Shown here: piece by piece, positions 7,975-19,819 of the stretch
Layout: every line of letters begins with the position of its first letter
How positions within the stretch are numbered: the stretch's first letter is position 1
IMG/VR virus record: IMGVR_UViG_3300031787_008284
Strand: one strand, 5' to 3'
Source: an uncultured virus (IMG/VR IMGVR_UViG_3300031787_008284)
Taxonomy: Duplodnaviria > Heunggongvirae > Uroviricota > Caudoviricetes
DNA: 20,000 nt
The notes under the pieces: generated by a model
The model's database searches: none
What the model was told of the DNA's origin: nothing
The model's input: the letters and a program-made list of their open reading frames with translations, nothing else
Translations under genes and position numbers: made by a program

Positions 7975-9154
7975 GTTCAGAAAGAATTTCAGTTAGGTTA
8001 CCAAGATCTACATCATCAGTTCCATAACAGAACTTAGCATTAACAATAGGTTCTAAACGATCAAGAACATCTTGTGTGATTACTCTAGGCGTAAATAATT
8101 CATTTAGTTCAACTAGGTCATTAAGATGGGCAACTGCTAATTTACGAGCGGTTGCTGAAGGTTGAAAATAAACGGTTACTTCTTTACCGTCTCTGTTATA
8201 AATATGTTGACGACATTCAGTTTTACCTGCTTCAGTTAGTTTTTCATATTGACCTTCTGTAATGAATCTTCCTTTTTCAATACCGCAATTATCCCAACTA
8301 ATATATTCCTCTAATCCAATATAAGGATTCATTCCTTTACTAAATGAAATGTGGAATTTAATTGGAGAAGGTTTTGCAAAACGGTTCTTATTAGGTTTAG
8401 CAGTTACAACAATACCAGTTTGTTCTGTACCTTCTTTAAGTTTTGCCTTACCTAAGAAAAGAATGATTGATGCAGCATATTCCGGACCGGTACCACCACC
8501 TGAAACCGTTTGTGAAAATAGGTCTTGTGTTTGGTATGTGTGGTTAGTGAATAAGAAAGGAATCTTACAGATACCTAATTTAGTCATAAGAATACGAAAT
8601 GCAGATTTCAATAATTTAGCACGGGTCATATCTGCTTTATCAGATCCACTCTTGGCATCATCAATTTCTTTTTGTGTAGCAAGGTTACCGGCAGAATCCA
8701 ATGCAATAAGAATCTTTGGTAATTCTACTCCTTTACTTTTTTGTTCAATTAATAGGTCAGTTAATGCAGTTACCGAACTTCTAAATTCTTGAACAGTATT
8801 ACACGGTTCATAGCGGAATTTTGAAGGATCAATTCCAAACTTTTCAACTAGGTCACGATCTACTGCATTTTCAGAATCGTAAAATACAATACTATAACCC
8901 ATAAGTTGAGCCTGTTTAATTGCATTAAGAAGAAGGAATGTTTTTCCAGTTCCTGATGGTCCGGCTAATGCAACTGCTCTGTTATTAGGATATCCGCCAC
9001 TAAAGGAGCCGGTTAAACATGCATTAAGATTAAAATTGCCAGTTGGGATGAAGTGATCAATTTCTGATACTGTTGATTTATCAAGAGTGTCTCCATACTG
9101 AGAGTGTTTTGACATTTCCTTGTTTAAATCGTCGAATGAAAATTCTTTACTCAT
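7955..9154 (-). CDS. uvsX: UvsX/RecA-like recombinase
   Basis: Walker A GPSGTGKT, YDSE, Walker B IALDSAGNL, ADMTRAK, FTNHTY, SGGGTGPEYAASII, KNRF. Confidence 0.93.
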   Translation of the reverse strand: MSKEFSFDDLNKEMSKHSQYGDTLDKSTVSEIDHFIPTGNFNLNACLTGSFSGGYPNNRAVALAGPSGTGKTFLLLNAIKQAQLMGYSIVFYDSENAVDRDLVEKFGIDPSKFRYEPCNTVQEFRSSVTALTDLLIEQKSKGVELPKILIALDSAGNLATQKEIDDAKSGSDKADMTRAKLLKSAFRILMTKLGICKIPFLFTNHTYQTQDLFSQTVSGGGTGPEYAASIILFLGKAKLKEGTEQTGIVVTAKPNKNRFAKPSPIKFHISFSKGMNPYIGLEEYISWDNCGIEKGRFITEGQYEKLTEAGKTECRQHIYNRDGKEVTVYFQPSATARKLAVAHLNDLVELNELFTPRVITQDVLDRLEPIVNAKFCYGTDDVDLGNLTEILSEHAEENA

Positions 9155-9165
9155 ATTCTTTTATT

Positions 9166-9193
9166 TTTATATGCAAATTACTTACTATTGTTT
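9166..9193 (-). promoter_or_regulatory. Putative promoter AAAC-N18-TATAAA upstream of uvsX
   Basis: AAAC at 9193-9190, 18-nt spacer, TATAAA at 9171-9166. Confidence 0.5.
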
Positions 9194-10083
9194 AATAAAA
9201 ATTTATCCTTAAAGATAGTCTTCCAATATTGATTAACAACATTATCCCAATTAAGTTCCTTAGTTATTTCATCATATACTTCTTCTGTATATTTTTTAAG
9301 TTTATCTGGATTAAGATTAAAATCTTTTATGATACTTACCGCTTCTTCAACGGTTTCAAATGTTTTAATACTCTTAAATTTATTTGCAAATCCTGTTTTA
9401 GTTGATAATACAGGAATTTTACAAAATGCGGCTTCAGCTATTCCATAAGGTCCTCTATCATTAGTACTTGTACAAATATACATATCAATATCATTATACA
9501 TAGTCCGAGATTCGCCTAAGTCTTTACCATGAATAAATACCGCATCACCACCAATACCTTTTGCAATGTTAACTAACATATGAGGTCTTTTTATCTGATC
9601 CCAACCAGGATTTATGAAAGGGGCTCCATTAAGACCTACTTTATTAATCTTTGTTACTTTGCGATTAGGAATAAATTCTTTGGAATCAACGCCAGCTATT
9701 ATAAGAGAGGAGTCCAGATTATACTGTTCTTTAAGTACTTTTTGCAAGTCTTCGCCAGCAGAACACCAGGTAATACCTTCTCTAGGTATAATATTTTCTC
9801 TAAAATGAGAACTAAGATTTGGGATAGACCATATTGCACATACCATTTTTTGATATGCTTCTTTAGGAAGTCCTTCTATAGCAGATAGTGTGCCATTACC
9901 TAATATAATATCAAATTCTTTCCACCCACCATCTCTCCAAAGATAATTAACATGGTCTGAATTAGACCAGTTAAAATGAACAAATTCATACTCGTCAGAT
10001 AAAGCATTACCTAGACCAGTATGAATTCGTCCTATAGCCCAACCGGGCTCATTATATGTTGCTATTCTGGTTTTTTTTTCCCT
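9178..10083 (-). CDS. GT-B (GT4-like) glycosyltransferase domain lacking its own start codon; likely reached by frameshift from the upstream GT
   Basis: The frame stays open upstream of ATG 9846 to 10083 (REKKTRIATYNEPGWAIGRIHTGLGNALSDEYEFVHFNWSN...), a GT-B first strand/helix. C-terminal motif YICTSTNDRGPYGIAEAAFCKIPVLST. Confidence 0.75.
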   Translation of the reverse strand, partial: REKKTRIATYNEPGWAIGRIHTGLGNALSDEYEFVHFNWSNSDHVNYLWRDGGWKEFDIILGNGTLSAIEGLPKEAYQKMVCAIWSIPNLSSHFRENIIPREGITWCSAGEDLQKVLKEQYNLDSSLIIAGVDSKEFIPNRKVTKINKVGLNGAPFINPGWDQIKRPHMLVNIAKGIGGDAVFIHGKDLGESRTMYNDIDMYICTSTNDRGPYGIAEAAFCKIPVLSTKTGFANKFKSIKTFETVEEAVSIIKDFNLNPDKLKKYTEEVYDEITKELNWDNVVNQYWKTIFKDKFLLNNSK

Positions 10084-11243
10084 CTATTAGTAGAATACAT
10101 TTTTTCAACCCATTTTTTAGTATATAATTCTGGATCTTCTATTGTGTACCAACCTTTATCTAGTGTTACATATAAGGCTTCTCTAAAATATTTTTCATAT
10201 TTTGGAGCAATTGCCTCAAGAGAGAAGTTTTCGCCATGCTTACGGCAATCGATAGATTTAATTTTACCAGCTTGGCAATCGCGAGCGGCTTTAACAAAAT
10301 CTTCAAAAGAACGGCAGCGATATCCAGTTACACCATGAATATTATTTTCAGCAAATGCACCCCAATCAGTCGTAATTGTTGGAGTACCACATAATAGGTT
10401 TTCAATTTGAACTCCACCAAAAGGTTCAACATACATTGAAGGTAAGAATGATGCAATTGCGCCTTTCATTAAATTCTTTCTCTGTTCTGCATCAACATAT
10501 CCAATGAATTCAACGTGTTTAGGCCACGGATTCTTTGTATAAAATTCATCACCAATTTGTCCGGCTATTTTAAGCTTTGCTCCAATTGCCTCGGTTGCCT
10601 GGATTGCAATATTAACACCTTTACCATCATATACACGGCCTACATAAAGGAAGTAGTCTTCTTTCTTTGTTGAATATTCAAATTCGTCAAGATCAAAATA
10701 ATTAGGAATAACCTGGTCATACCAGCTCTGACGACACATACTTACATTACCTAAACCGCAGTACGCATGGTAAATTGCATATGATTCAAAGATCTTAAAT
10801 ACTGACCACATACCACCTGCATATCCAATGCCTGGTTCAATAATACATAAATCAGGGTGGGCATCACAGATAGGACGAACACCAGATCCCCAGAAAGGCA
10901 AAATAATATCACCGGGTTGTTTTCTCTTTTCTATTTCTTGAATAGCATTTTTATAAAATGTTTGATATGCTTCATCCTGTGTATCATACTTAAATAAATG
11001 AGTCTTATAATCATGACTTCCATAAACCTTTTCCCAAACATCATTTGTAATTACTGTGATGTTTTCATTTGCATCCGGGTTAGAATCTTCATGACCATAA
11101 TGCATTAAGTAATGTCCTCGTGATTTCATCATTTTACAAAACTTCCATGCCTTTTGTGTATAGGCACAAGCAGTAAAATCTTTAGTTGTTTTAGTATGAG
11201 GTAAACCTAAAACGTGTATTCTGAACTTTTTGTCTTTTTCCAT
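10062..11243 (-). CDS. GT4-family glycosyltransferase
   Basis: VIPNYFD, YVGRV..GKG, EPFGGVQIE (EX7E), GTPTITTDWGAFAE, HGVTG. Confidence 0.9.
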   Translation of the reverse strand: MEKDKKFRIHVLGLPHTKTTKDFTACAYTQKAWKFCKMMKSRGHYLMHYGHEDSNPDANENITVITNDVWEKVYGSHDYKTHLFKYDTQDEAYQTFYKNAIQEIEKRKQPGDIILPFWGSGVRPICDAHPDLCIIEPGIGYAGGMWSVFKIFESYAIYHAYCGLGNVSMCRQSWYDQVIPNYFDLDEFEYSTKKEDYFLYVGRVYDGKGVNIAIQATEAIGAKLKIAGQIGDEFYTKNPWPKHVEFIGYVDAEQRKNLMKGAIASFLPSMYVEPFGGVQIENLLCGTPTITTDWGAFAENNIHGVTGYRCRSFEDFVKAARDCQAGKIKSIDCRKHGENFSLEAIAPKYEKYFREALYVTLDKGWYTIEDPELYTKKWVEKMYSTNRGKKKPE

Positions 11244-11256
11244 ATTTTATTTATTT

Positions 11257-12375
11257 TTAGAATAAACTCGTTGTATAAATAAGATTTCTATTAAATCCCT
11301 TAAATCCCATTGCAGTTACTACTCTATTTATTGGATCTAAAATTGTCTTTTCAAATTGTACATCATAATCTACTTGAGGTGAAAATTCATAAGGATATTC
11401 GCCCGGAGTATATGCAAATACATCACATGATTTATCAGTAGAAAAGTACATTTTTAATTTTTCACCGTTTCCTAAAGGCTTATACTTTCCTTTAAGTTTA
11501 TTGTTATTATTCAAAAGGTAATTATGATAACCTGCAGCCCTTACACCTATTGGGCATTTAGAACCAATTTCAAATTGATCATAATCATTAATAATGTAGT
11601 TTTGATAGTTATTAACCTTTTTAGAGAAACTAATTTGATCAATATTTGCAAGTTTAAACTGCCTCTTAATATCTTTTAATAAAGCGGCAAACTCTTTCAT
11701 ATTTAGTTGGTTATTTGAAAAGATATAGGTTAACAGTTCCTTTAGTTTCTCTCTTGCAAACTGTGGGGTTGATGATTGAATAATCTCAAACCCCTTGGCA
11801 CTAATTTTACTTAGTTCATCATAATGAATATCAGGATCTTTCCATACAATGTTTTGCATATACTTTTTCTTGGCAAGCCATATTGCATTTTTAGCAATAC
11901 TCTCCAATTCAAAGCTTAAGAAGTTTTCAGCATTATTATCATCAGCATATTTCTGAAGAATCTTTTCAATATAATCTGCTAACCTAGTTTTATAGAGGTT
12001 AAGAATAAACTCCTTTTCGTTGCCAGACCAATCAGATTTTTCAATAACTTCATCAAACTTAACATAGATTGAATCCGTATCAATATAAATACCTACTGGT
12101 TTTTCAATTTTACCAGTGACAGTAATACCCATTTGTTTATGGGTTTCTAAATCTTTATGCCAAAATTCACGGAAGTATTTATTAATTAGTTTTTCAGTGT
12201 AGAGAATTGCATCCTTTCCCTGAAGAGTAATAGTTTCCGCAATATCAACATTAAAGAAATAGAAGTAAGGATTACCAAATGCACCATAAATAGAGTTAAG
12301 CATTAGCTTAACAGCCTGTTCATAGTTATAATATTTGGAAGCCTCTTCTTTAATCTGTTGTATCTCTTCAGTCAT
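11257..12375 (-). CDS. Family B DNA polymerase, C-terminal subunit of a split gp43
   Basis: Begins at the fingers helix with motif B KLMLNSIYGAFGN, then motif C YIDTDSIY, KKKY, KGFE and thumb. No exonuclease domain or motif A. Ends in SLF. Confidence 0.92.
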   Translation of the reverse strand: MTEEIQQIKEEASKYYNYEQAVKLMLNSIYGAFGNPYFYFFNVDIAETITLQGKDAILYTEKLINKYFREFWHKDLETHKQMGITVTGKIEKPVGIYIDTDSIYVKFDEVIEKSDWSGNEKEFILNLYKTRLADYIEKILQKYADDNNAENFLSFELESIAKNAIWLAKKKYMQNIVWKDPDIHYDELSKISAKGFEIIQSSTPQFAREKLKELLTYIFSNNQLNMKEFAALLKDIKRQFKLANIDQISFSKKVNNYQNYIINDYDQFEIGSKCPIGVRAAGYHNYLLNNNNKLKGKYKPLGNGEKLKMYFSTDKSCDVFAYTPGEYPYEFSPQVDYDVQFEKTILDPINRVVTAMGFKGFNRNLIYTTSLF

Positions 12376-12494: not shown

Positions 12495-13244
12495 TTATTC
12501 TTCATCAGTAATAGCAACGGCTACAGTAAGATGCGTATTAGTATCTAATGAACGAAATACTACTTTATTCTCGCATACCATTACCTTGTAATTTTCCTTA
12601 TCTAGAAGGTTCAAATACTTTTTGTAAATAACCACCTTTGCACCGCTATCAACATTACTTTCAAATGTATGACAAAGTGTAGCATCGTATGAAGAACCTT
12701 TGATACAGATTCCTTTATTACTTGTGTAAATAGTAAAAGTATCTTCATCCTTATCAAGGTTAAACAATGATTTCATTTTATCTACATGAGTAGTAAGAAG
12801 ATCAAATTCAAACATTTTGTTATCGGTACCAAAGGCACGATCAGTTTCTTCTTTACTCATTTCCATAAAAGAAAGTGAAGGATCGGTACAAGCAAGACTG
12901 ATTTGAAGATCATCATTTTCTAAGATAAAATCACTTGCCATTAATTCTCCATCGTATTCAGTATATCTGATACGTCCTTTAACATCTCCGTTAAAATGAG
13001 TAAGAGCATCAATTACTTTACTCCCATTATAAAAGCTTACCTTGAGCGGGGAACTAATCTCTGCATCAAAGATATCCTTTGTTGGCGTGTTAACTAATTT
13101 AACCGCATCTCTCTCAGGAAAATATACTGATGAAACGGTTCCTTCCTTACCAATCTTCATAAAGATGAATTTATCAATTGGAAGAAGCTTCTTAACAAAC
13201 GAACTTAATTCGTATGCATCGATTTTGTTAATTGTGGTTTCCAT
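12495..13244 (-). CDS. Probable sliding clamp (gp45/PCNA-like)
   Basis: 249 aa acidic protein with an apparent two-repeat beta-alpha-beta pattern, directly upstream of the polymerase gene. No diagnostic motif, so the call rests on size, pattern and context. Confidence 0.55.
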   Translation of the reverse strand: METTINKIDAYELSSFVKKLLPIDKFIFMKIGKEGTVSSVYFPERDAVKLVNTPTKDIFDAEISSPLKVSFYNGSKVIDALTHFNGDVKGRIRYTEYDGELMASDFILENDDLQISLACTDPSLSFMEMSKEETDRAFGTDNKMFEFDLLTTHVDKMKSLFNLDKDEDTFTIYTSNKGICIKGSSYDATLCHTFESNVDSGAKVVIYKKYLNLLDKENYKVMVCENKVVFRSLDTNTHLTVAVAITDEE

Positions 13245-13257
13245 TATTTGTTTTTTA

Positions 13258-13285
13258 ATTATATTGATTATTGATTACTTGGTTT
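13258..13285 (-). promoter_or_regulatory. Putative promoter AAAC-N18-TATAAT upstream of clamp gene
   Basis: AAAC at 13285-13282, 18-nt spacer, TATAAT at 13263-13258. Confidence 0.55.
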
Positions 13286-13290
13286 TAAGA

Positions 13291-14301
13291 TTAAAAGACA
13301 GATGACACTTTAACTGCAGATTTTTTCATTTTACTTTGAACTGCTTTAAATGCAGGAGGTCTCCATGATTCATCATATAAGATATCCTTCAATTCATATT
13401 TAGGTTGATATTCAAATCCAAACTTCCACTCAATTCCTCGTAAGAACTGACGTAAGAAAATAGGCTTCTTTGTTCCAATAGGATAATGCAAAAGTGACGG
13501 TGTAACTTGCTTTAGATAAAGAGGCTGTATATTATTAGCAAGAGCTTCCTTATCAACATTTTGCATAAGACGAAGATCTTTACTCTTTAACATATTTACA
13601 GTTCTGCCTTCCTTTCTAAGTCTATGAAAGTTAAAATGATGGAACCTCTGTTCTACAGTCCAACTCGTATATCCTACAAAATCAAAGAATAGGTGATGTA
13701 CCATCTTGTGATTCATAAATCTTTGAAAGTAATATTCCATTTTAGGATCATGGCCATAAATAACATTTCCTGCATTAATTGATAATGCATTCATTTCTTC
13801 TAATGTAAAATTACTTTCAAAGATTTCATTAAATGCAGAAAGTACTTCATACTTATCAGCATTTCTTAGATTAAAAAGATTTTCTTTTTTATAACCGAAC
13901 TCTTGGTATTCGGTAAACATATAACTTAAATCATTAAAGATAAATACATCATCATCTGAAACATAGGTTCTTTTAACTTTATACTTATCTAAAAGATACA
14001 TTGGCATTAAAGCCTTAAATAGACAGCCATGAGTATAAAGGAATTCTTTAGCCTTACCTTCATACTCATGCTTCTCTACATAATAATCATATACGCCCTT
14101 AATACTGATATAGGTTGCATTCTTGAATGATTCAATATTATGATTACCTATAACTTCTCTTACACTTTCCTCGGTGACTTTAGTATCATCTAAGAAAAGG
14201 TAAATATCAAAATTTTCTTGAACATCCTTAGGATAGTATGTTAAAAGAATGTTCATAAACTCATGGCTAGAAACGCCAATCGCTAATGCATTTTCTCTCA
14301 T
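13291..14301 (-). CDS. GT-A fold glycosyltransferase (GT8-like)
   Basis: DxD motif YVSDDDVFIF, INAGNVIY (compare NSGV), EQ (compare DQ) and LLHY. ATGA-coupled to the methyltransferase-like gene. Confidence 0.65.
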   Translation of the reverse strand: MRENALAIGVSSHEFMNILLTYYPKDVQENFDIYLFLDDTKVTEESVREVIGNHNIESFKNATYISIKGVYDYYVEKHEYEGKAKEFLYTHGCLFKALMPMYLLDKYKVKRTYVSDDDVFIFNDLSYMFTEYQEFGYKKENLFNLRNADKYEVLSAFNEIFESNFTLEEMNALSINAGNVIYGHDPKMEYYFQRFMNHKMVHHLFFDFVGYTSWTVEQRFHHFNFHRLRKEGRTVNMLKSKDLRLMQNVDKEALANNIQPLYLKQVTPSLLHYPIGTKKPIFLRQFLRGIEWKFGFEYQPKYELKDILYDESWRPPAFKAVQSKMKKSAVKVSSVF

Positions 14302-15560
14302 ATTACACTGTTTACTTTATATCTTTTTTTAGGTTCTTGATTAAGTTCTTCAACTTCAATTATTTTATTTAAGGTATTGTCCTGCTTCATGAATTTATAC
14401 TGTGTCATTTTAGCAGTACCTTGACAGAATTTTTTAACCTCATCAGCCATATCCTGCGCAGTTCTTACTGGCACATTTTGTGCAATATGATTTATGTGGC
14501 GAGAATCTTGAATTTCAAAATCATGAGGCATACCCATAAGATGTAACATTTCTCTTACATTAAGATAACGATTTTCTACAGGGTGTACGCCGTTAAACAT
14601 ATTTCTTCCGATAAGAGCAGAAAAAGAATCATGGAAAAAGTGTGGAGATGCATCCCAATATCCTTTTCCATCATCAACTTTAGCCTGTTGGTGTTGGAGC
14701 ATATCAATAAACGTTTTAGTACTTTTCTTATTAGAAAATCCTTCCTTTGGATATTTTTCTTGTAACCAAGAGATACATTCATCAATTAGTTTATGTTCAT
14801 CGAGATATTGTGCAATGGTACCTTTCTTAAATTCCGCAGCAAATTCTGCATGAGTTAAACCTTTCTTTTCAAGAATAAATTCATAAGGTCTAAAGTGGTC
14901 AGTTACTTTTCCATCCACCATAAACATATCTTGTAGAGTTGCATCTTCAGGAATTTCATTTAGATATTCTAATAAAGTTTTTCTTTCCCTAAATTTCCAA
15001 TCCAACATAGGTACAGTTGGAGTGTTCCAAAAGAAATAGAATGTACGGATTCTTCTTTGAGGAATACCATGCAATTCAGTATTAGTTTTAATAAGAGAAA
15101 AACTATAACCATGTTTTTCAGCAATTTCCTTAAGCCTACGAACTACACCTTCACCCATTTTAGTAAAAAGACCTGGCGCATTTTCACCCCAAAGAACTTT
15201 AGGTTTTACGTGTTCTAAAATATATTCAGATGATTCATACATCCATTTATTTTGAACCGCGTCAGATCCACGAGAAGCGGCACTACCTCTAGCAGAATTA
15301 AGTAGACTAAGACCTGCGCATGGACATACAGAGTTTACATAATCAACATTTTCAAATGTATTATTAGGAATCTCAAGTTCAGGGTGATCTAAACGATACA
15401 TAGGAATACCTTCCCAATATCTTTCTATATGACTTTCATTTGCAGCAAATGCTTCATAACTTAAATGAAATGCAGGTTTAGATTCAGCTGACCTAGAACA
15501 ACCTATTGCACTTCCACCGATAAGGGGAATAATTGTACCCCATTTAATTTCTTTACTCAT
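14298..15560 (-). CDS. C5-cytosine DNA methyltransferase-like protein with atypical cofactor motifs
   Basis: Motif IV CPCAGLS, motif VI WGENAPGL, motif VIII HGIPQRRIRTF, motif IX RYLNVREMLHLMGMP. Motif I reads IPLIGG and motif X reads IAQNVPV. Confidence 0.85.
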   Translation of the reverse strand: MSKEIKWGTIIPLIGGSAIGCSRSAESKPAFHLSYEAFAANESHIERYWEGIPMYRLDHPELEIPNNTFENVDYVNSVCPCAGLSLLNSARGSAASRGSDAVQNKWMYESSEYILEHVKPKVLWGENAPGLFTKMGEGVVRRLKEIAEKHGYSFSLIKTNTELHGIPQRRIRTFYFFWNTPTVPMLDWKFRERKTLLEYLNEIPEDATLQDMFMVDGKVTDHFRPYEFILEKKGLTHAEFAAEFKKGTIAQYLDEHKLIDECISWLQEKYPKEGFSNKKSTKTFIDMLQHQQAKVDDGKGYWDASPHFFHDSFSALIGRNMFNGVHPVENRYLNVREMLHLMGMPHDFEIQDSRHINHIAQNVPVRTAQDMADEVKKFCQGTAKMTQYKFMKQDNTLNKIIEVEELNQEPKKRYKVNSVI

Positions 15561-16579
15561 ATTTTAACTTTTTCAATTTGAAGATCCTCCATAAATGTAT
15601 AGGGATCTATGTTACCTTTCTTTACCTCTTCTTCTAGATATGTAATGGTTTCTTTAATTGTATCTTCCATACTCTTTTTAGGTTCCCATCCCATAGATTT
15701 TGCTTTAGATATATCAGCACGAATATTAAGAGCCTCACCGGCAATAGCACCATATTGGTCATAATTAACAGTTTCAATTCCCATAACCTTACCGATGATA
15801 TCTTTAAGATCCGCTAAGGTTGTCATTTTACCAGTACCTAGATTAAATGTTTGATTAGCAGTTTCTTCATTTTCCATGCATAACATATGAAAGGCATTTA
15901 CGTCATCTACGTCGATGTAGTCTCTTGCCTTCATAGGATCGCCAAAGATAATAGGATTCTTACCACCCATTAGACGAATAATAAAACCTGCAAAAACCGG
16001 AGGTACCGTTCTATTATAATCCTGAAGAGGGCCTGCTACATTAAAGTAACGAAGAGCAGTATAATTAACACCCTTTGTACGTGAATATGATTCTGCTAAT
16101 AGTGCAAGACATGCTTTAGTTGTAGAATAAATTGTAGTAGGATCAGATTGACCTTCGTGAAACCCAGTAGGGGCCATTAATTCATTTTCATAAACCGCTG
16201 AAGTTTCACTAAAGATGATTCTTTTAACTCCGCTCTCCGCTGCTGCATCTAGGATATTAATACTACCTAGAATGTTATTATCAACAGCTTCATAAGGATT
16301 AGCATGGCAATCATAAATTGAAACAAGACCTGCAAAGTGATAAATGTATTCAGGCTTAAATTCAGAAATGATACTCTTTACATACTCATTACGGATGTCT
16401 TCCTGATAAAAGTTTTTAATCCTGTCATGAACTTGTGGTAAATAAGTACCATGTGAAAGATTATCTACAACCGCAATGCAGTCTGGATTATGACCTCGTT
16501 TTAAGAGATCGTTAATAAAATTTGTTCCAACAAAACCGGCTCCACCAGTAATAAGGATTCTCGTTTCTTTGTTATACAT
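15557..16579 (-). CDS. Extended SDR NDP-sugar epimerase/dehydratase (GalE-like)
   Basis: GGAGFVG, DNLSHG, HFAG, catalytic YSTTK, LRYFNVAG, RDYIDVDD, FNLGTG. Confidence 0.92.
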   Translation of the reverse strand: MYNKETRILITGGAGFVGTNFINDLLKRGHNPDCIAVVDNLSHGTYLPQVHDRIKNFYQEDIRNEYVKSIISEFKPEYIYHFAGLVSIYDCHANPYEAVDNNILGSINILDAAAESGVKRIIFSETSAVYENELMAPTGFHEGQSDPTTIYSTTKACLALLAESYSRTKGVNYTALRYFNVAGPLQDYNRTVPPVFAGFIIRLMGGKNPIIFGDPMKARDYIDVDDVNAFHMLCMENEETANQTFNLGTGKMTTLADLKDIIGKVMGIETVNYDQYGAIAGEALNIRADISKAKSMGWEPKKSMEDTIKETITYLEEEVKKGNIDPYTFMEDLQIEKVKI

Positions 16580-16586
16580 TTTATAA

Positions 16587-17834
16587 TTAATTTTGAGTTA
16601 CGCGTTCATATGCTTCCCAGATCTTGTTATCAACATGTTCACCGGTATAATATGAATCTTTTAGATATTTAGTTTGAAGGTTATAGAATAAAGTTTTATA
16701 ATGCTCTGGGTTTTCGTTTAGATACTCAATTTTCTTTTTAAGATCTTCAGGTGATTTACAACGAATAAAATGATCCTTTGGAAACACATTACATTCAGTA
16801 TCGTAGGATGGATGTAAGAAAGGTATAATACCATAGTGCAGCATTTCAGCATACTTAGAAGTGACCATACCCTCTTTAATAGGAACGCAGAATGTATATT
16901 TAGTGTTAAGGAGTTCTTTAGTTAAAGATTCAATTCTCATTTCCCCCTTAAAGTAATTAGGGTATTGTTGAACCAATTCTTCATCCCATTTACCATAGAT
17001 ATCGGTTTGAACACCAGTTTTAACAATGTATTCTCTAACAGGATCCCAACGATCCATTCCGCCGGAACCTTTACCTTGATTCTGTAACATCATAAATGAA
17101 TTAGTCTTTTTCATATTAAATAATTCATCAATGTTATATCTTTTCTTATCTAATAAGAATACCGTTTCAATTCCTGAATATTCAAAAGTAGAATGTATCT
17201 TTGCAGTTTCACGAGTAGGTGGATTACAAAAATACTCTTCATCCAATTCAAAATTATTCTGTGCAAGATAATAAGTAGGGCGGTTATGAGCCTGATAATC
17301 TTTTGCAGCAAGAATAAATCTATTATCAACCAATAGACCTACAATAGGAGTCTTTGGCATTTCATTAAGAGCCTTAATAATTGGTGCAGCATAATACTTA
17401 AAGAAGTCTAATGACTTAACAGTACCAGTACCATCAACCTTATTAATAAAGTTTTCAATATTTACAGTACTTGCCGGTCCTGTATAGAAAAAGATATAGT
17501 CTAATCCTAATGACTTAATAGTTTCAACTGTTTCTTCGGTTGATTTTCTTTCATCCATTTTAGAATGAAATTCCTTAATATTAGAAGGAATCGTATTTGA
17601 TGATTCTGGTGCTGGTCCAAACAGAGGTGCTGCTTTAGGTTTTTCTTTTGCTCTAACCTTTCCTAAATCATTTGGACTAAGAAGCCAATACTCGACATTA
17701 GGATTTCTTTTTGCAATTGCACAGATTAATTGTTTAGGTTCACAATCTCCGCCAATCGCATTCCAACTATTTTCATTAAACTTAATAGCCTTGCCAAGTT
17801 TAAAGAAGCCTACCTTTTTTACATTTTCTTTCAT
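16587..17834 (-). CDS. T4 DNA beta-glucosyltransferase-like (GT-B) enzyme
   Basis: Collinear by-eye match to T4 BGT as recalled: LLVDNR/LFTDIR, EYSGIE/EYFPIE, R...REYIVKTGVQTDIYG/R...VEFLFDTGLNIEFFG, FKGEM/FTGKI, VTSKYAE/ITLRVWE, SYDT/EFDT, EDLKKKIEYL/AELIDRVNEL. Confidence 0.75.
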   Translation of the reverse strand: MKENVKKVGFFKLGKAIKFNENSWNAIGGDCEPKQLICAIAKRNPNVEYWLLSPNDLGKVRAKEKPKAAPLFGPAPESSNTIPSNIKEFHSKMDERKSTEETVETIKSLGLDYIFFYTGPASTVNIENFINKVDGTGTVKSLDFFKYYAAPIIKALNEMPKTPIVGLLVDNRFILAAKDYQAHNRPTYYLAQNNFELDEEYFCNPPTRETAKIHSTFEYSGIETVFLLDKKRYNIDELFNMKKTNSFMMLQNQGKGSGGMDRWDPVREYIVKTGVQTDIYGKWDEELVQQYPNYFKGEMRIESLTKELLNTKYTFCVPIKEGMVTSKYAEMLHYGIIPFLHPSYDTECNVFPKDHFIRCKSPEDLKKKIEYLNENPEHYKTLFYNLQTKYLKDSYYTGEHVDNKIWEAYERVTQN

Positions 17835-17835
17835 A

Positions 17836-18540
17836 TTATTTAGCTTGGATTAATTCTTCAATTACTTTTTTATCTTGTTCATATGTTAAATCATACCAAT
17901 CAATATCAAGATGTTGAATATCCAGGTTATTCATTGAATTGATAAGATGGGTAATTTCATATTCATTACGATTAGATAATTTAATACTGCTTAAATTATC
18001 AAATGCTTCTTTTGCAAATATCATATAACCACAAAAATATCTACCGCTTACTACACCGTGCGGTTTTTCCACAACCACGTTATCTAGGATAGTTGCCAAT
18101 TGGAGATTCCTTGCTCGCGTTTCATAATCTCTATAGGTAATTACACTCTTCTTAGGATCATGATATTCTAATCCAATATTTCCACGATAAAAGTTATCAC
18201 CAAATAGGCAAAGGAACGGTTCATAAAAGGCACCTTGCCATGCTTTAATAGCAGCACCAGGACCATACTCGTCATCCTTTTGGAATTCATAGTAAATATC
18301 TATCTTATCTTTATATTGTGATAAAGATTCAATAATAGGATGAGATAACTTAATGTTATTCTTAAAGAAGAAGTCTGATTTACTGATTGTTATGTATGCT
18401 TCTTCAATTCCATTTTCAATGCAAAATTCAATACAATACTGAATTGTTGATTTACCGAGAATAGGATCAATTAATTTATTTGATCCGTATCTGGTTGATT
18501 TTCCAGCAGCCAGGATAATTGCCTTTTTTACTCTACTCAT
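17836..18540 (-). CDS. Sugar-1-phosphate nucleotidyltransferase (RmlA-like)
   Basis: IILAAGKSTRY..NKL, FQ...GPGAA, LFGDN, VEKP, LSNRNEYEIT, WYD. Confidence 0.88.
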   Translation of the reverse strand: MSRVKKAIILAAGKSTRYGSNKLIDPILGKSTIQYCIEFCIENGIEEAYITISKSDFFFKNNIKLSHPIIESLSQYKDKIDIYYEFQKDDEYGPGAAIKAWQGAFYEPFLCLFGDNFYRGNIGLEYHDPKKSVITYRDYETRARNLQLATILDNVVVEKPHGVVSGRYFCGYMIFAKEAFDNLSSIKLSNRNEYEITHLINSMNNLDIQHLDIDWYDLTYEQDKKVIEELIQAK

Positions 18541-19283
18541 TTTGAATATTTTATTTCAAGTTCATTAAATAACTCGTGACCTTTTTTAAGGAAGGTACCT
18601 GCCAATTCATATCTTTCATTCAATTCAAAAAATGGAACAGCTCCTAAGAGATGTACCGCTAAATAAAATTTCAAAAGATACTCATCGTACCATTCATACA
18701 TAATCTTTTCAGCTTCTTTACAAAACCTTGAATATTTTGTACTTTGGTTATTGTATATATGGGTTTCATACTCCATCACAAACGATTGCATAAGTTTACC
18801 AAAGTCATAATAATCTTGTTCTTCGGTACCCCTAGGATCAATAAAGATAAATTTATTATCATAAAGAATATTACTTACGGTTAAGTCTCCATGTACAAAA
18901 CCCCATTTAGAAACACCATCGAGTTTACCTTCATAATAATAACCGGTTCTTCCTTCTAATTTATCAAGATATGATCTGGTATCAACATCTTTACCATATC
19001 CTTCAAACTTATTGATTATTTGAATAAGATCCTCTAATTGAGATACAGACTTTGTAATAGGTTGATCACAAATTTGATCATACCATGTTGGAAACTTTTT
19101 CATTCTATATGAAAATTCACCAATAGGATCAATCTTAATAAAGTTAGGATGTGGACAATTAATAAGCCAATCCATCTGCTGCTTAAACTTTTCAGGATAA
19201 ACTCCAGCTTCTTTAATTACATGATCCTCGTGGAGATATACTCTATCCCCGCTGTTTCCTATTAAAATTTTACTATCAGACAT
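18537..19283 (-). CDS. APH/choline-kinase-like phosphotransferase
   Basis: GNSG Gly loop, VIK, catalytic HGDLTVSNIL, FIDPRG, YDFGKL. Confidence 0.85.
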   Translation of the reverse strand: MSDSKILIGNSGDRVYLHEDHVIKEAGVYPEKFKQQMDWLINCPHPNFIKIDPIGEFSYRMKKFPTWYDQICDQPITKSVSQLEDLIQIINKFEGYGKDVDTRSYLDKLEGRTGYYYEGKLDGVSKWGFVHGDLTVSNILYDNKFIFIDPRGTEEQDYYDFGKLMQSFVMEYETHIYNNQSTKYSRFCKEAEKIMYEWYDEYLLKFYLAVHLLGAVPFFELNERYELAGTFLKKGHELFNELEIKYSK

Positions 19284-19819
19284 TCAATACCAAGTTTACG
19301 TGCAAAAGTAGAATCAACTTCAGAATCACCTATCATTAGGTAATCTTCTCTATTCCATCTATGTGAAGTATGATCATTAAAAATAAGTTCCCCCATTTGA
19401 GGATGAGGTTTCTTTTTAGAAACCATTTCTCTAGTATAAATTCCTAAAAATAGATTAGGATCAATTCCATGATATGCCATTATTTTATCAACATTTTCTC
19501 TGGAAGAATTTGATGCTATAATACATTTTTTAGGATAGTGATTCTTTATAACATAATGTAATAAATGATTCACCTGAGTTCTATGAATCATTTTTGAGAA
19601 TATATCTTTTTTATATTCTTGTGCTAATAATGATTCTTCTTCGGATAGTTGATATTTTTTTAATAGAACATCCATTCCATAATTAATATCAGCATGTATG
19701 CTTTCAATCGGGATTTCAATATCCAATACCCGCTCAAGAGCATGTTGCCATGATTCTGCATGTACATCAATAGTCTTTACTAAAGTATCATCAAAATCTA
19801 TAATTAAGCACTTCTTCAT
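19262..19819 (-). CDS. HAD-family phosphatase (beta-PGM/YqaB-like)
   Basis: DFDDTL motif I, HAESW cap, ASNS motif II, KKPHP motif III, IGDSEVD motif IV. Confidence 0.88.
   Translation of the reverse strand: MKKCLIIDFDDTLVKTIDVHAESWQHALERVLDIEIPIESIHADINYGMDVLLKKYQLSEEESLLAQEYKKDIFSKMIHRTQVNHLLHYVIKNHYPKKCIIASNSSRENVDKIMAYHGIDPNLFLGIYTREMVSKKKPHPQMGELIFNDHTSHRWNREDYLMIGDSEVDSTFARKLGIECLIVKF

Follow-up and report, generated by a model that had tools for sequence, protein, structure and literature searches.

A phage-centered C5-cytosine methyltransferase-fold subfamily with conserved catalytic residues and a rewritten cofactor pocket accompanies hydroxymethylcytosine-type gene sets

C5-cytosine methyltransferases (C5-MTases) are among the best understood of DNA enzymes, and the motifs by which they bind S-adenosylmethionine (SAM) are treated as universal. 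M.HhaI, M.HaeIII, and E. coli Dcm carry F-x-G-x-G-G in motif I, a Glu in motif II, an Asn in motif X, and ENV in motif VI. An engineered variant of M.MpeI, in which the motif X Asn was changed to a basic residue that pairs with the carboxylate, reportedly uses carboxy-SAM (Cx-SAM). In the T-even phages, 5-hydroxymethylcytosine (hmC, also 5hmC) is made at the nucleotide level and then glucosylated (gp42, gp1, and the alpha- and beta-glucosyltransferases). A natural DNA cytosine C5-carboxymethyltransferase, CmoX of Synechococcus phage S-B43 (PDB 8YF3), is described as having Arg at the motif X Asn, an SPPC motif, and Phe25, Glu47, Phe48, and Asp69 for the cofactor, and as depending on a phage CmoA (PMC12783734). 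A further phage pathway joins a C5-MTase, a TET enzyme (5mYOX), and a glycosyltransferase, with TET making 5hmC from 5-methylcytosine (5mC), as laid out by Burke et al. 2021 (PMC8256090). Here we describe a 420-aa C5-MTase-fold protein (P0001) encoded at 14298..15560, an open reading frame (ORF) that was confirmed, on the minus strand of a 20,000-nucleotide stretch of uncultured virus DNA. That whole stretch, hereafter the window, corresponds to positions 17786-37785 (minus strand) of the 139,776-bp virus record IMGVR_UViG_3300031787_008284; its GC content is ∼31%, and all of its long ORFs, like every window feature given below, lie on the minus strand. The protein belongs to a large natural subfamily that keeps the catalytic machinery and has four cofactor contacts replaced in one fixed way, and that is always found with a pathway already substituting cytosine C5. 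Judged from its sequence, it may well be a catalytically competent member of this phage-centered subfamily, and we assign a probability of roughly 0.45 to the reading that it is a SAM-dependent, site-specific, replisome-associated 5mC methylase covering cytosines that are not replaced by hmC.

The match of the methylase to Pfam PF00145 scores 69 bits against a cut-off of 22 and covers profile positions 54-324 only, so that motif I is left unmatched, and sequence matches to the solved M.HaeIII and M.HhaI span motifs IV-VIII and IX-X only. An AlphaFold2 (AF2) model built from an alignment of 113 sequences has a mean pLDDT of 95.3, and its top Foldseek matches are MET1, M.HaeIII, M.HhaI, DNMT1, and CmoX (E 3e-14 to 2e-12). 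Given this model and these matches, the predicted two-domain C5-MTase fold is complete, including the Rossmann-like cofactor half. The alignment comprises near-full-length relatives at 30-81% identity, picked from 270 listed rows with fragments, near-duplicates, and long eukaryote-like forms left out; all residue counts below refer to it. The sequence-only reading had noted conserved PC, EN, and QxRxR motifs, and this is borne out across the family. Motif IV, VCPC in our protein, aligns through Pro80-Cys81 (15318..15323) to the PC of M.HhaI and M.HaeIII and supplies the catalytic nucleophile, with position 79 being Cys in 64/113 and Pro in 48/113. Motif VI reads ENAP (residues 126-129, 15174..15185) and is aligned by HMMER to the canonical ENV; Glu126 and Ala128 are each found in 113/113 and Asn127 and Pro129 each in 112/113. 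Motif VIII is QxRxR (residues 168-172, 15045..15059, within PQRRIR at 167-172), with Gln168 in 112 of the 113. The four catalytic residues Cys81, Glu126, Arg170, and Arg172 are invariant (113/113).

The cofactor motifs depart from this pattern of strict retention. To place them, the profile of the 113 relatives was aligned to a profile of E. coli Dcm and four phage C5-MTases (probability 99.7, E 2e-25); hhalign against Dcm alone gave a probability of 59 with motif II misplaced, and the five-enzyme profile was used instead. In motif I, IPLIGG (residues 11-16, 15513..15530; IIPLIGG at 10-16) aligns to F-A-G-x-G-G, such that Ile11 takes the place of Phe, Pro12 that of Ala, and Leu13 that of the first Gly, with Gly15-Gly16 on the final GG. 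Pro12 is conserved in 111/113 and Leu13, Gly15, and Gly16 each in 113/113, and the Phe position holds Ile or Val, so the family form is [IV]-P-L-[IV]-G-G and not the canonical FxGxGG. In motif X, HMMER places AQNVPV on the GNAVPV of M.HaeIII, which puts Ala360 at the Gly and Gln361 at the Asn; within this AQNVP variant (residues 360-364, 14469..14483, against GNAVP), Gln361 is found in 112/113 and Asn362 in 108/113. The altered motifs I and X that had been called from the single sequence thus map where they were proposed to lie and are family-wide, in a family that counts 2063 matches at E<=0.001 among 3916 candidates and 965 cluster representatives. The earlier remark that motif II aligns poorly stands for its acidic residue: the ribose-binding Glu at the end of strand 2 is replaced by Ser34 (98/113), and two residues on, at position 36, an acidic residue (Asp or Glu) is present in only 31/113. 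It has to be qualified by a conserved pair one to two helical turns further along the helix, Asn41 (109/113) and Asp/Glu42 (108/113). The adenine side of the pocket is retained. Tyr35, which corresponds to the Trp that follows the motif II Glu, is at a position that is aromatic in 103/113, and Asp58 corresponds to the motif III Asp that contacts adenine N6 and is Asp in 83/113, Asn in 11, and Glu in 9. Relative to M.HhaI, M.HaeIII, and Dcm, the subfamily therefore carries [IV]-P-L-[IV]-G-G, Ser, Gln, and ENAP, together with a polymerase-like C-terminal tail that the canonical enzymes lack.

Because these pocket positions are under strong constraint, a ligand is probably still bound, and the invariant catalytic residues and conserved pocket residues together argue for an active enzyme that binds it. 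A catalytically silent role, in which the protein would serve the glycosyltransferases as a DNA-binding or base-flipping accessory, could account for the lost cofactor motifs and for the tight linkage to a gene resembling T4 beta-glucosyltransferase (BGT), described below. We consider it very improbable, since the invariance of Cys81, Glu126, Arg170, and Arg172 and the conservation of the pocket would be unexpected in a dead enzyme. Retention of the adenine-side contacts, the aromatic residue at 35 and Asp58, favors an adenosyl donor, most simply SAM.

The same observations can be taken to mean that the covalent chemistry is unchanged and that the donor is another adenine-bearing molecule, a SAM derivative or some other activated group, leaving a substituent other than methyl on C5. 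On the adenine side of the pocket the contacts are retained, whereas the side facing ribose and amino acid has been rewritten and then frozen (Leu13, Ser34, Gln361, Asn362), and the change from ENV to ENAP lies beside the target C5. CmoX, in which the same motif X Asn is changed, offers a natural precedent for use of Cx-SAM (PMC12783734). The parallel is weakened by the contacts themselves, given that CmoX retains the Phe, Glu, and Asp contacts, of which Phe and Glu are lost here. No match to the Cx-SAM synthase CmoA (TIGR00740) was found in the 139.8 kb of this record, which is ∼45% complete by the CheckV estimate and to which all genome-wide negatives below are confined. Nor does any donor-making gene recur beside the methylase in 78 related IMG/VR loci (28 close and 50 distant, not dereplicated, with 1521 clustered ORFs), which were found with a 16-sequence alignment of the methylase family. 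The eukaryote-like and TET-fused relatives described next would also need the same unusual donor, and overall we regard a different donor as rather unlikely. The analogy to M.MpeI and Cx-SAM drawn by the sequence-only reading fails on the specifics: the motif X Asn is changed in both, but here to a neutral Gln in place of a basic residue, and three other pocket changes accompany it. Identity with CmoX as a carboxymethyltransferase was likewise rejected, as both of its sequence hallmarks are absent (Gln361 where CmoX has Arg, and VCPC where it has SPPC).

Relatives outside the phages also speak to the product. The family occurs in freshwater and marine phages, in a Bacillus jumbo phage, and in eukaryote-like transcripts, and a search of the ESM Atlas brought up nothing beyond a cluster of this same kind of protein. 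The variant motifs persist in the long eukaryote-like relatives (32-60% identity), some of which are equipped with zf-CXXC or C2H2 fingers, add-ons of the DNA methylation type, and some of which bear copepod (Neocalanus) transcriptome names. In one protein of 838 aa, P0249, a methylase domain of this family (32% identity across 413 residues) is found in combination with a C2H2 finger and a dioxygenase domain resembling TET2. The last aligns to human TET2 (E 1.4e-12) through the Cys-rich part and HxD, with Pfam Tet_JBP at 22.8 bits only. Its cluster has 47 members on 3.2-4.9 kb contigs from three sources (JGI, ENA, Logan), and a search for further methylase-TET fusions returned this cluster only. 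Since a TET2-like 5mC dioxygenase is here fused to the methylase domain, 5mC is suggested as the product; the fusion hints that the family makes 5mC in cells that lack the phage pathway.

With SAM as the most economical donor, the enzyme would flip a cytosine out of duplex DNA, Cys81 would attack C6 with the assistance of Glu126 and Arg170/Arg172, and the activated C5 would receive a one-carbon group from the donor held in the rebuilt pocket. The donor would be SAM and the product 5mC, placed at specific motifs on newly replicated phage DNA. Meanwhile hmC would be made separately, at the nucleotide level, by a dCMP-hydroxymethylase-type enzyme and a deoxynucleoside monophosphate (dNMP) kinase, and a BGT-like transferase would decorate it with a home-made nucleoside diphosphate (NDP)-sugar, leaving the methylase to cover cytosines that escape replacement.

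Both site specificity and an association with replication are suggested by features of the protein itself. Tandem methylase paralogues occur in 3/78 loci (L040 9974-12410, L043 9962-12378, and L072 9959-12407), where the two copies share 53-58% identity in their catalytic halves and 21-27% in the target-recognition region, a pattern that in sequence terms is that of enzymes with different DNA motifs; both copies carry ..LF tails. In the window, the methylase ends in ..RYKVNSVI (14301..14324), a candidate clamp-docking peptide that resembles the polymerase tail. Similar tails in the record are found on the methylase (..NSVI), a 336-aa neighbor (..SSVF), the C-terminal half of the family-B DNA polymerase (..YTTSLF), and a topoisomerase subunit (..NKSLF). 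The methylase tail covaries with that of the polymerase in three lineages, ..S[VIT][IF] occurring with ..TSLF and ..LQLDxFMV with ..TLEEFFA; in the remaining one, a methylase tail ..[KS]xLF occurs together with BGT- and AGT-like tails ..KSLF/..TALF. The tail pattern is present in 26/80 family members and in 28/913 other ORFs. T4 gp43, which docks on the sliding clamp through its C-terminal tail, provides the analogy by which we infer that these tails are clamp-docking peptides, and the methylase would probably dock on the replisome through its polymerase-like tail. No sliding clamp gene was recognized in the record (PF09116 and PF02916 gave no match), and a 223-aa candidate has no family. The divergence of the tandem paralogues, together with the polymerase-like tails, argues for a sequence-specific, DNA-directed enzyme at the fork.

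Several points weigh against a SAM-dependent 5mC methylase. Four canonical cofactor contacts are replaced family-wide (Phe to Ile/Val, first Gly to Leu, Glu to Ser, and Asn to Gln), and in class I methyltransferases generally no SAM contacts are better conserved than that motif I Gly and the motif II Glu. The NCBIfam dcm model (TIGR00675) matches at 47.7 bits over profile positions 53-325, below its cut-off of 100.65. P0249, which carries the TET2-like domain, differs from the family at the very positions in question, with Asn in place of Leu at position 13 and QGVP in place of QNVP at motif X. If cytosine is fully replaced by hmC, as the dCMP-hydroxymethylase-type gene in 7/7 complete genomes might imply, there would be no free C5 to methylate. 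No assayed member of the family was found in the literature. No literature on the subfamily was found either, and the consulted portions of papers on dinoflagellate and diatom DNMTs held no match to it. It is conceivable, if somewhat unlikely, that the enzyme does not make 5mC at all and that its pocket holds a non-SAM donor or the (phospho)hydroxymethyl group of hmC, so that a replisome-riding enzyme would introduce a group other than methyl at C5 or swap one in. If such a non-methyl reading were true, cytosine hypermodification would have a third enzymatic route in addition to the thymidylate-synthase-type and methylase-plus-TET ones, and the fold would have been recruited to a new DNA modification, with consequences for phage-host arms races and for epigenomic tools. 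If SAM is bound, the binding mode is an unrecognized one, which would be useful for annotation and for enzyme engineering.

The neighboring genes bear on where a modified cytosine would come from. One of them encodes a 415-aa BGT-like DNA glycosyltransferase at 16587..17834. It has no Pfam match and no usable sequence match in the PDB, and its likeness is by fold only: Foldseek, run with its AF2 model (pLDDT 82.5), ranks T4 beta-glucosyltransferase in all six top places (E 3e-11 to 8e-9), with the next GT-B structure at 4e-7. Elsewhere in the record are two thymidylate synthase (TS)-family genes. One (372 aa, 292 bits) has Asn as its specificity residue and is an ordinary ThyA. The other, a 293-aa dCMP-hydroxymethylase-type paralogue at record positions 78254-79135, finds its best solved relatives in the CMP hydroxymethylase MilA (E 3e-25) and T4 gp42, the dCMP hydroxymethylase (E 1e-23), and matches true TS at 4e-11. 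It has Asp at ThyA N177, keeps Asp169, and has Asp at the L143 position (..GTPTD, ..KDFVC), counted as three residues before the catalytic Cys because the alignment is gapped there. An Asp at N177, an acidic residue at L143, and retention of Asp169 are the criteria for a 5hmdCMP synthase in Lee et al. 2026 (PMC13326640). By sequence, then, the paralogue has the signature of a 5hmdCMP synthase and not that of a 5-hydroxy-dCMP synthase; the 5-hydroxycytosine synthase assignment was rejected since the diagnostic Asp169-to-Asn change is absent from this gene and from 18/18 relatives. The paralogue is preceded by guanylate-kinase-like and thymidylate-kinase-like genes, a dNMP kinase lying directly before it, and is ∼55 kb from the methylase in the lineage of the window.

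A survey of 37 related virus records from IMG/VR and three cultured phages gave the same picture. A TS-family match is present in 20/37 records and the Asp-type paralogue in 18/37, all 18 having Asp at the Leu143 position and Asp169. The 17 records lacking a TS match are 6-26% complete, and the two that have the ThyA type only are 26-30% complete. The Asp-type paralogue is found in 4/4 complete related records and in cyanophage S-TIM5, Bacillus phage G, and Pseudoalteromonas phage XG4, that is, in 7/7 complete genomes. Because the record holds both a hydroxymethylase-type paralogue and a BGT-fold enzyme, the simplest view is that the acceptor is hmC formed at the nucleotide level, by analogy with the T-even phages. 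The methylase occurs regularly in hypermodification gene sets of the hmC type, where it accompanies the nucleotide-level hydroxymethylase and does not substitute for it.

These results do not support the earlier suggestion that the methylase itself makes the hydroxylated acceptor of the BGT-like enzyme and thereby explains a missing TET. In such a scheme, cytosine in DNA would be hydroxymethylated directly from formaldehyde or methylene-tetrahydrofolate; in a weaker form, the enzyme would be a postreplicative backup acting on leftover C. C5-MTases are able, in vitro and when deprived of SAM, to add formaldehyde to cytosine; the contacts for SAM are altered in the present enzyme, and its gene is linked to a BGT-fold transferase. 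No Tet_JBP match above the Pfam cut-off was seen in the 139.8 kb record, in the 37 related records (0/37, with two 13-bit matches; most are fragments), or in S-TIM5, phage G, and XG4 (0/3), in searches that had no positive control and are weak evidence. The dCMP-hydroxymethylase-type gene of this record, with a kinase gene beside it, and the presence of the same gene in all the complete genomes contradict direct hydroxymethylation as the sole source of hmC; in addition, nothing points to a folate site, and the TET fusion of P0249 would be redundant if the methylase domain already made hmC. We therefore hold this route to be quite improbable. Of the related loci, 23/28 close and 10/50 distant ones have a BGT-like gene no more than 6 kb from the methylase.

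The locus thus resembles two described systems in different respects. As in the pathway set out by Burke et al. (PMC8256090), a C5-MTase gene stands beside DNA glycosyltransferase and epimerase genes in uncultured phages; where that pathway has a TET, none was seen here, its place being taken by a nucleotide-level hydroxymethylase. It shares with the T-even glucosyl-hmC system the dCMP-hydroxymethylase-type paralogue with its adjacent dNMP kinase, the BGT fold, and, in related loci, AGT-like genes. It differs from the latter in that a C5-MTase-fold gene, which the T-even system lacks, is embedded in the operon and that the NDP-sugar is apparently made by the phage itself. No gp56-type dCTPase was recognized among 148+20 ORFs scanned with Pfam in this ∼45% complete record.

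Gene content around the distant homologues is more varied. Within 6 kb of the methylase, a hydroxymethylase-type gene is found in 25/50 distant loci and 0/28 close ones, and the distant loci also contain a dCMP deaminase (17/50), a fusion of NTP-transferase and kinase (8/50), and an AGT-like gene (Pfam AGT, E 1e-5; 6/50). When the distant loci are limited to the 18 whose flanks reach 8 kb or more in each direction, four have neither a glycosyltransferase nor a hydroxymethylase within 8 kb, and two of those four have 5-hmdU-DNA-kinase-like and inositol-1-phosphate-synthase-like genes instead. A protein with the 5-hmdU DNA kinase helical domain (Pfam HMUDK_hel) is among the methylase neighbors in 13/50 distant loci and lies directly upstream in L057. 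In L057 (5153-9998), L060 (966-9295), and L076 (2533-9721), 5-hmdU-DNA-kinase-like, myo-inositol-1-phosphate-synthase-like, small PNK-like, and GT4 genes stand beside the methylase, gene sets that hint at a different tailoring chemistry.

Such neighbors raise the prospect that the enzyme acts on hmC already in DNA, with Cys81 adding to C6, the 5-CH2-OH group or its phospho form leaving, and a nucleophile being added in its place, a DNA-level exchange analogous to thymidine hypermodification. Work from the Klimasauskas laboratory reportedly showed that C5-MTases can, in vitro, strip 5hmC of its hydroxymethyl group or exchange that group. The methylase is also strictly linked to the hmC pathway, and the 13 loci with the helical-domain protein have an inositol-1-phosphate-synthase-like gene as well. 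The genome record of the window itself, however, has no 5-hmdU-kinase-like match, the TET-fused and CXXC-bearing relatives argue for an ordinary cytosine substrate, and the conserved adenine contacts would be pointless in such a reaction. This makes an exchange on hmC improbable, though less so than direct hydroxymethylation, and a 5mC methylase that uses SAM remains our preferred reading.

The immediate neighbors of the methylase in the window are largely genes of sugar activation and transfer. Upstream lies an NAD-dependent sugar-nucleotide epimerase/dehydratase at 15557..16579 (Pfam Epimerase, E 5e-44; NCBIfam GalE at 145.9 bits, below its cut-off). Beyond the BGT-like gene lie a sugar-1-phosphate nucleotidyltransferase at 17836..18540 (Pfam NTP_transferase; NCBIfam glmU/rmlA-type matches below their cut-offs), an APH-family kinase-like protein at 18537..19283 that is a probable sugar kinase by a weak Pfam APH match, and a HAD-family hydrolase/phosphomutase-like protein at 19262..19819 (Pfam HAD_2, E 6e-21; the NCBIfam beta-phosphoglucomutase family falls below its cut-off). 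In other lineages, the NTP_transferase and APH parts form one fused protein (fam38). On the other side, the start of the gene for the 336-aa protein with the ..SSVF tail (13291..14301) overlaps the methylase stop; nothing in Pfam, PHROG, NCBIfam, or, at the sequence level, the PDB matches this protein, which is present in 16/28 close and 2/50 distant loci. Further along are the C-terminal half of the split family-B DNA polymerase (11257..12375; Pfam DNA_pol_B positions 142-379), a 393-aa GT4-type glycosyltransferase (10062..11243; Pfam Glycos_transf_1, E 4e-19; phrog_3408, E 1e-163), and a short glycosyltransferase-like protein of 222 aa (9178..9846; weak Pfam GT1 matches below cut-offs). The two glycosyltransferase genes are variably present, lying within 6 kb of the methylase in 15/28 and 14/28 close loci, respectively.

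The record as a whole is that of a T4-like myovirus, with a gp20-type portal, a gp23-type capsid, sheath, terminase, and UvsX, and it also encodes a DnaB-like helicase, SbcCD, a clamp loader, and the split polymerase. DNA nearly identical to the stretch occurs in assembled contigs from runs labeled lake water, freshwater, and "fungus" metagenome, and 84-97% of sampled words are present in three further studies (possible-source rows left out). These sequencing runs carry the stretch as assembled contigs only and so hold no information on base modification; two RNA runs match 5-6% of words only, which gives no evidence of expression.

A number of additional observations concern the same genes. 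The N-terminal half of the polymerase is at record positions 8480-9886, ∼15.5 kb from the C-terminal half, and between the two halves lie a ribonucleotide reductase, many sugar-pathway genes, the BGT-like gene, and the methylase. The record is unusually rich in sugar metabolism (e.g., 12778-13518, 13954-17591, 92971-93690, and 138538-139161), with KDO-8-P-synthase-like, CMP-KDO-synthetase-like, SIS isomerase, PseB-like dehydratase, PglD-like acetyltransferase, and DegT aminotransferase genes, as well as several transferases of the GT2, GT25, and GT32 types. An ATP-grasp ligase-like gene (record 79102-80103) overlaps the 3′ end of the hydroxymethylase-type gene. A 633-aa NodU/CmcH-type carbamoyltransferase (record 105265-107166) adjoins the Asn-type ThyA at 107350-108468; a published 5hmC carbamoyltransferase was discovered via such a pairing with TS-family genes (PMC8670742). 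The sole TS-family gene of S-TIM5 ("ThyA", L115 5763-6599) lies 2.4 kb from the methylase homologue of that phage and has Asp at the N177 position and Cys at the L143 position, residues that suggest it may make a C5-modified dCMP rather than dTMP. Finally, a homologue of ribosomal protein S21 is located between the methylase and UvsX in L059 (4513-4803) and is found in 13/50 distant loci.

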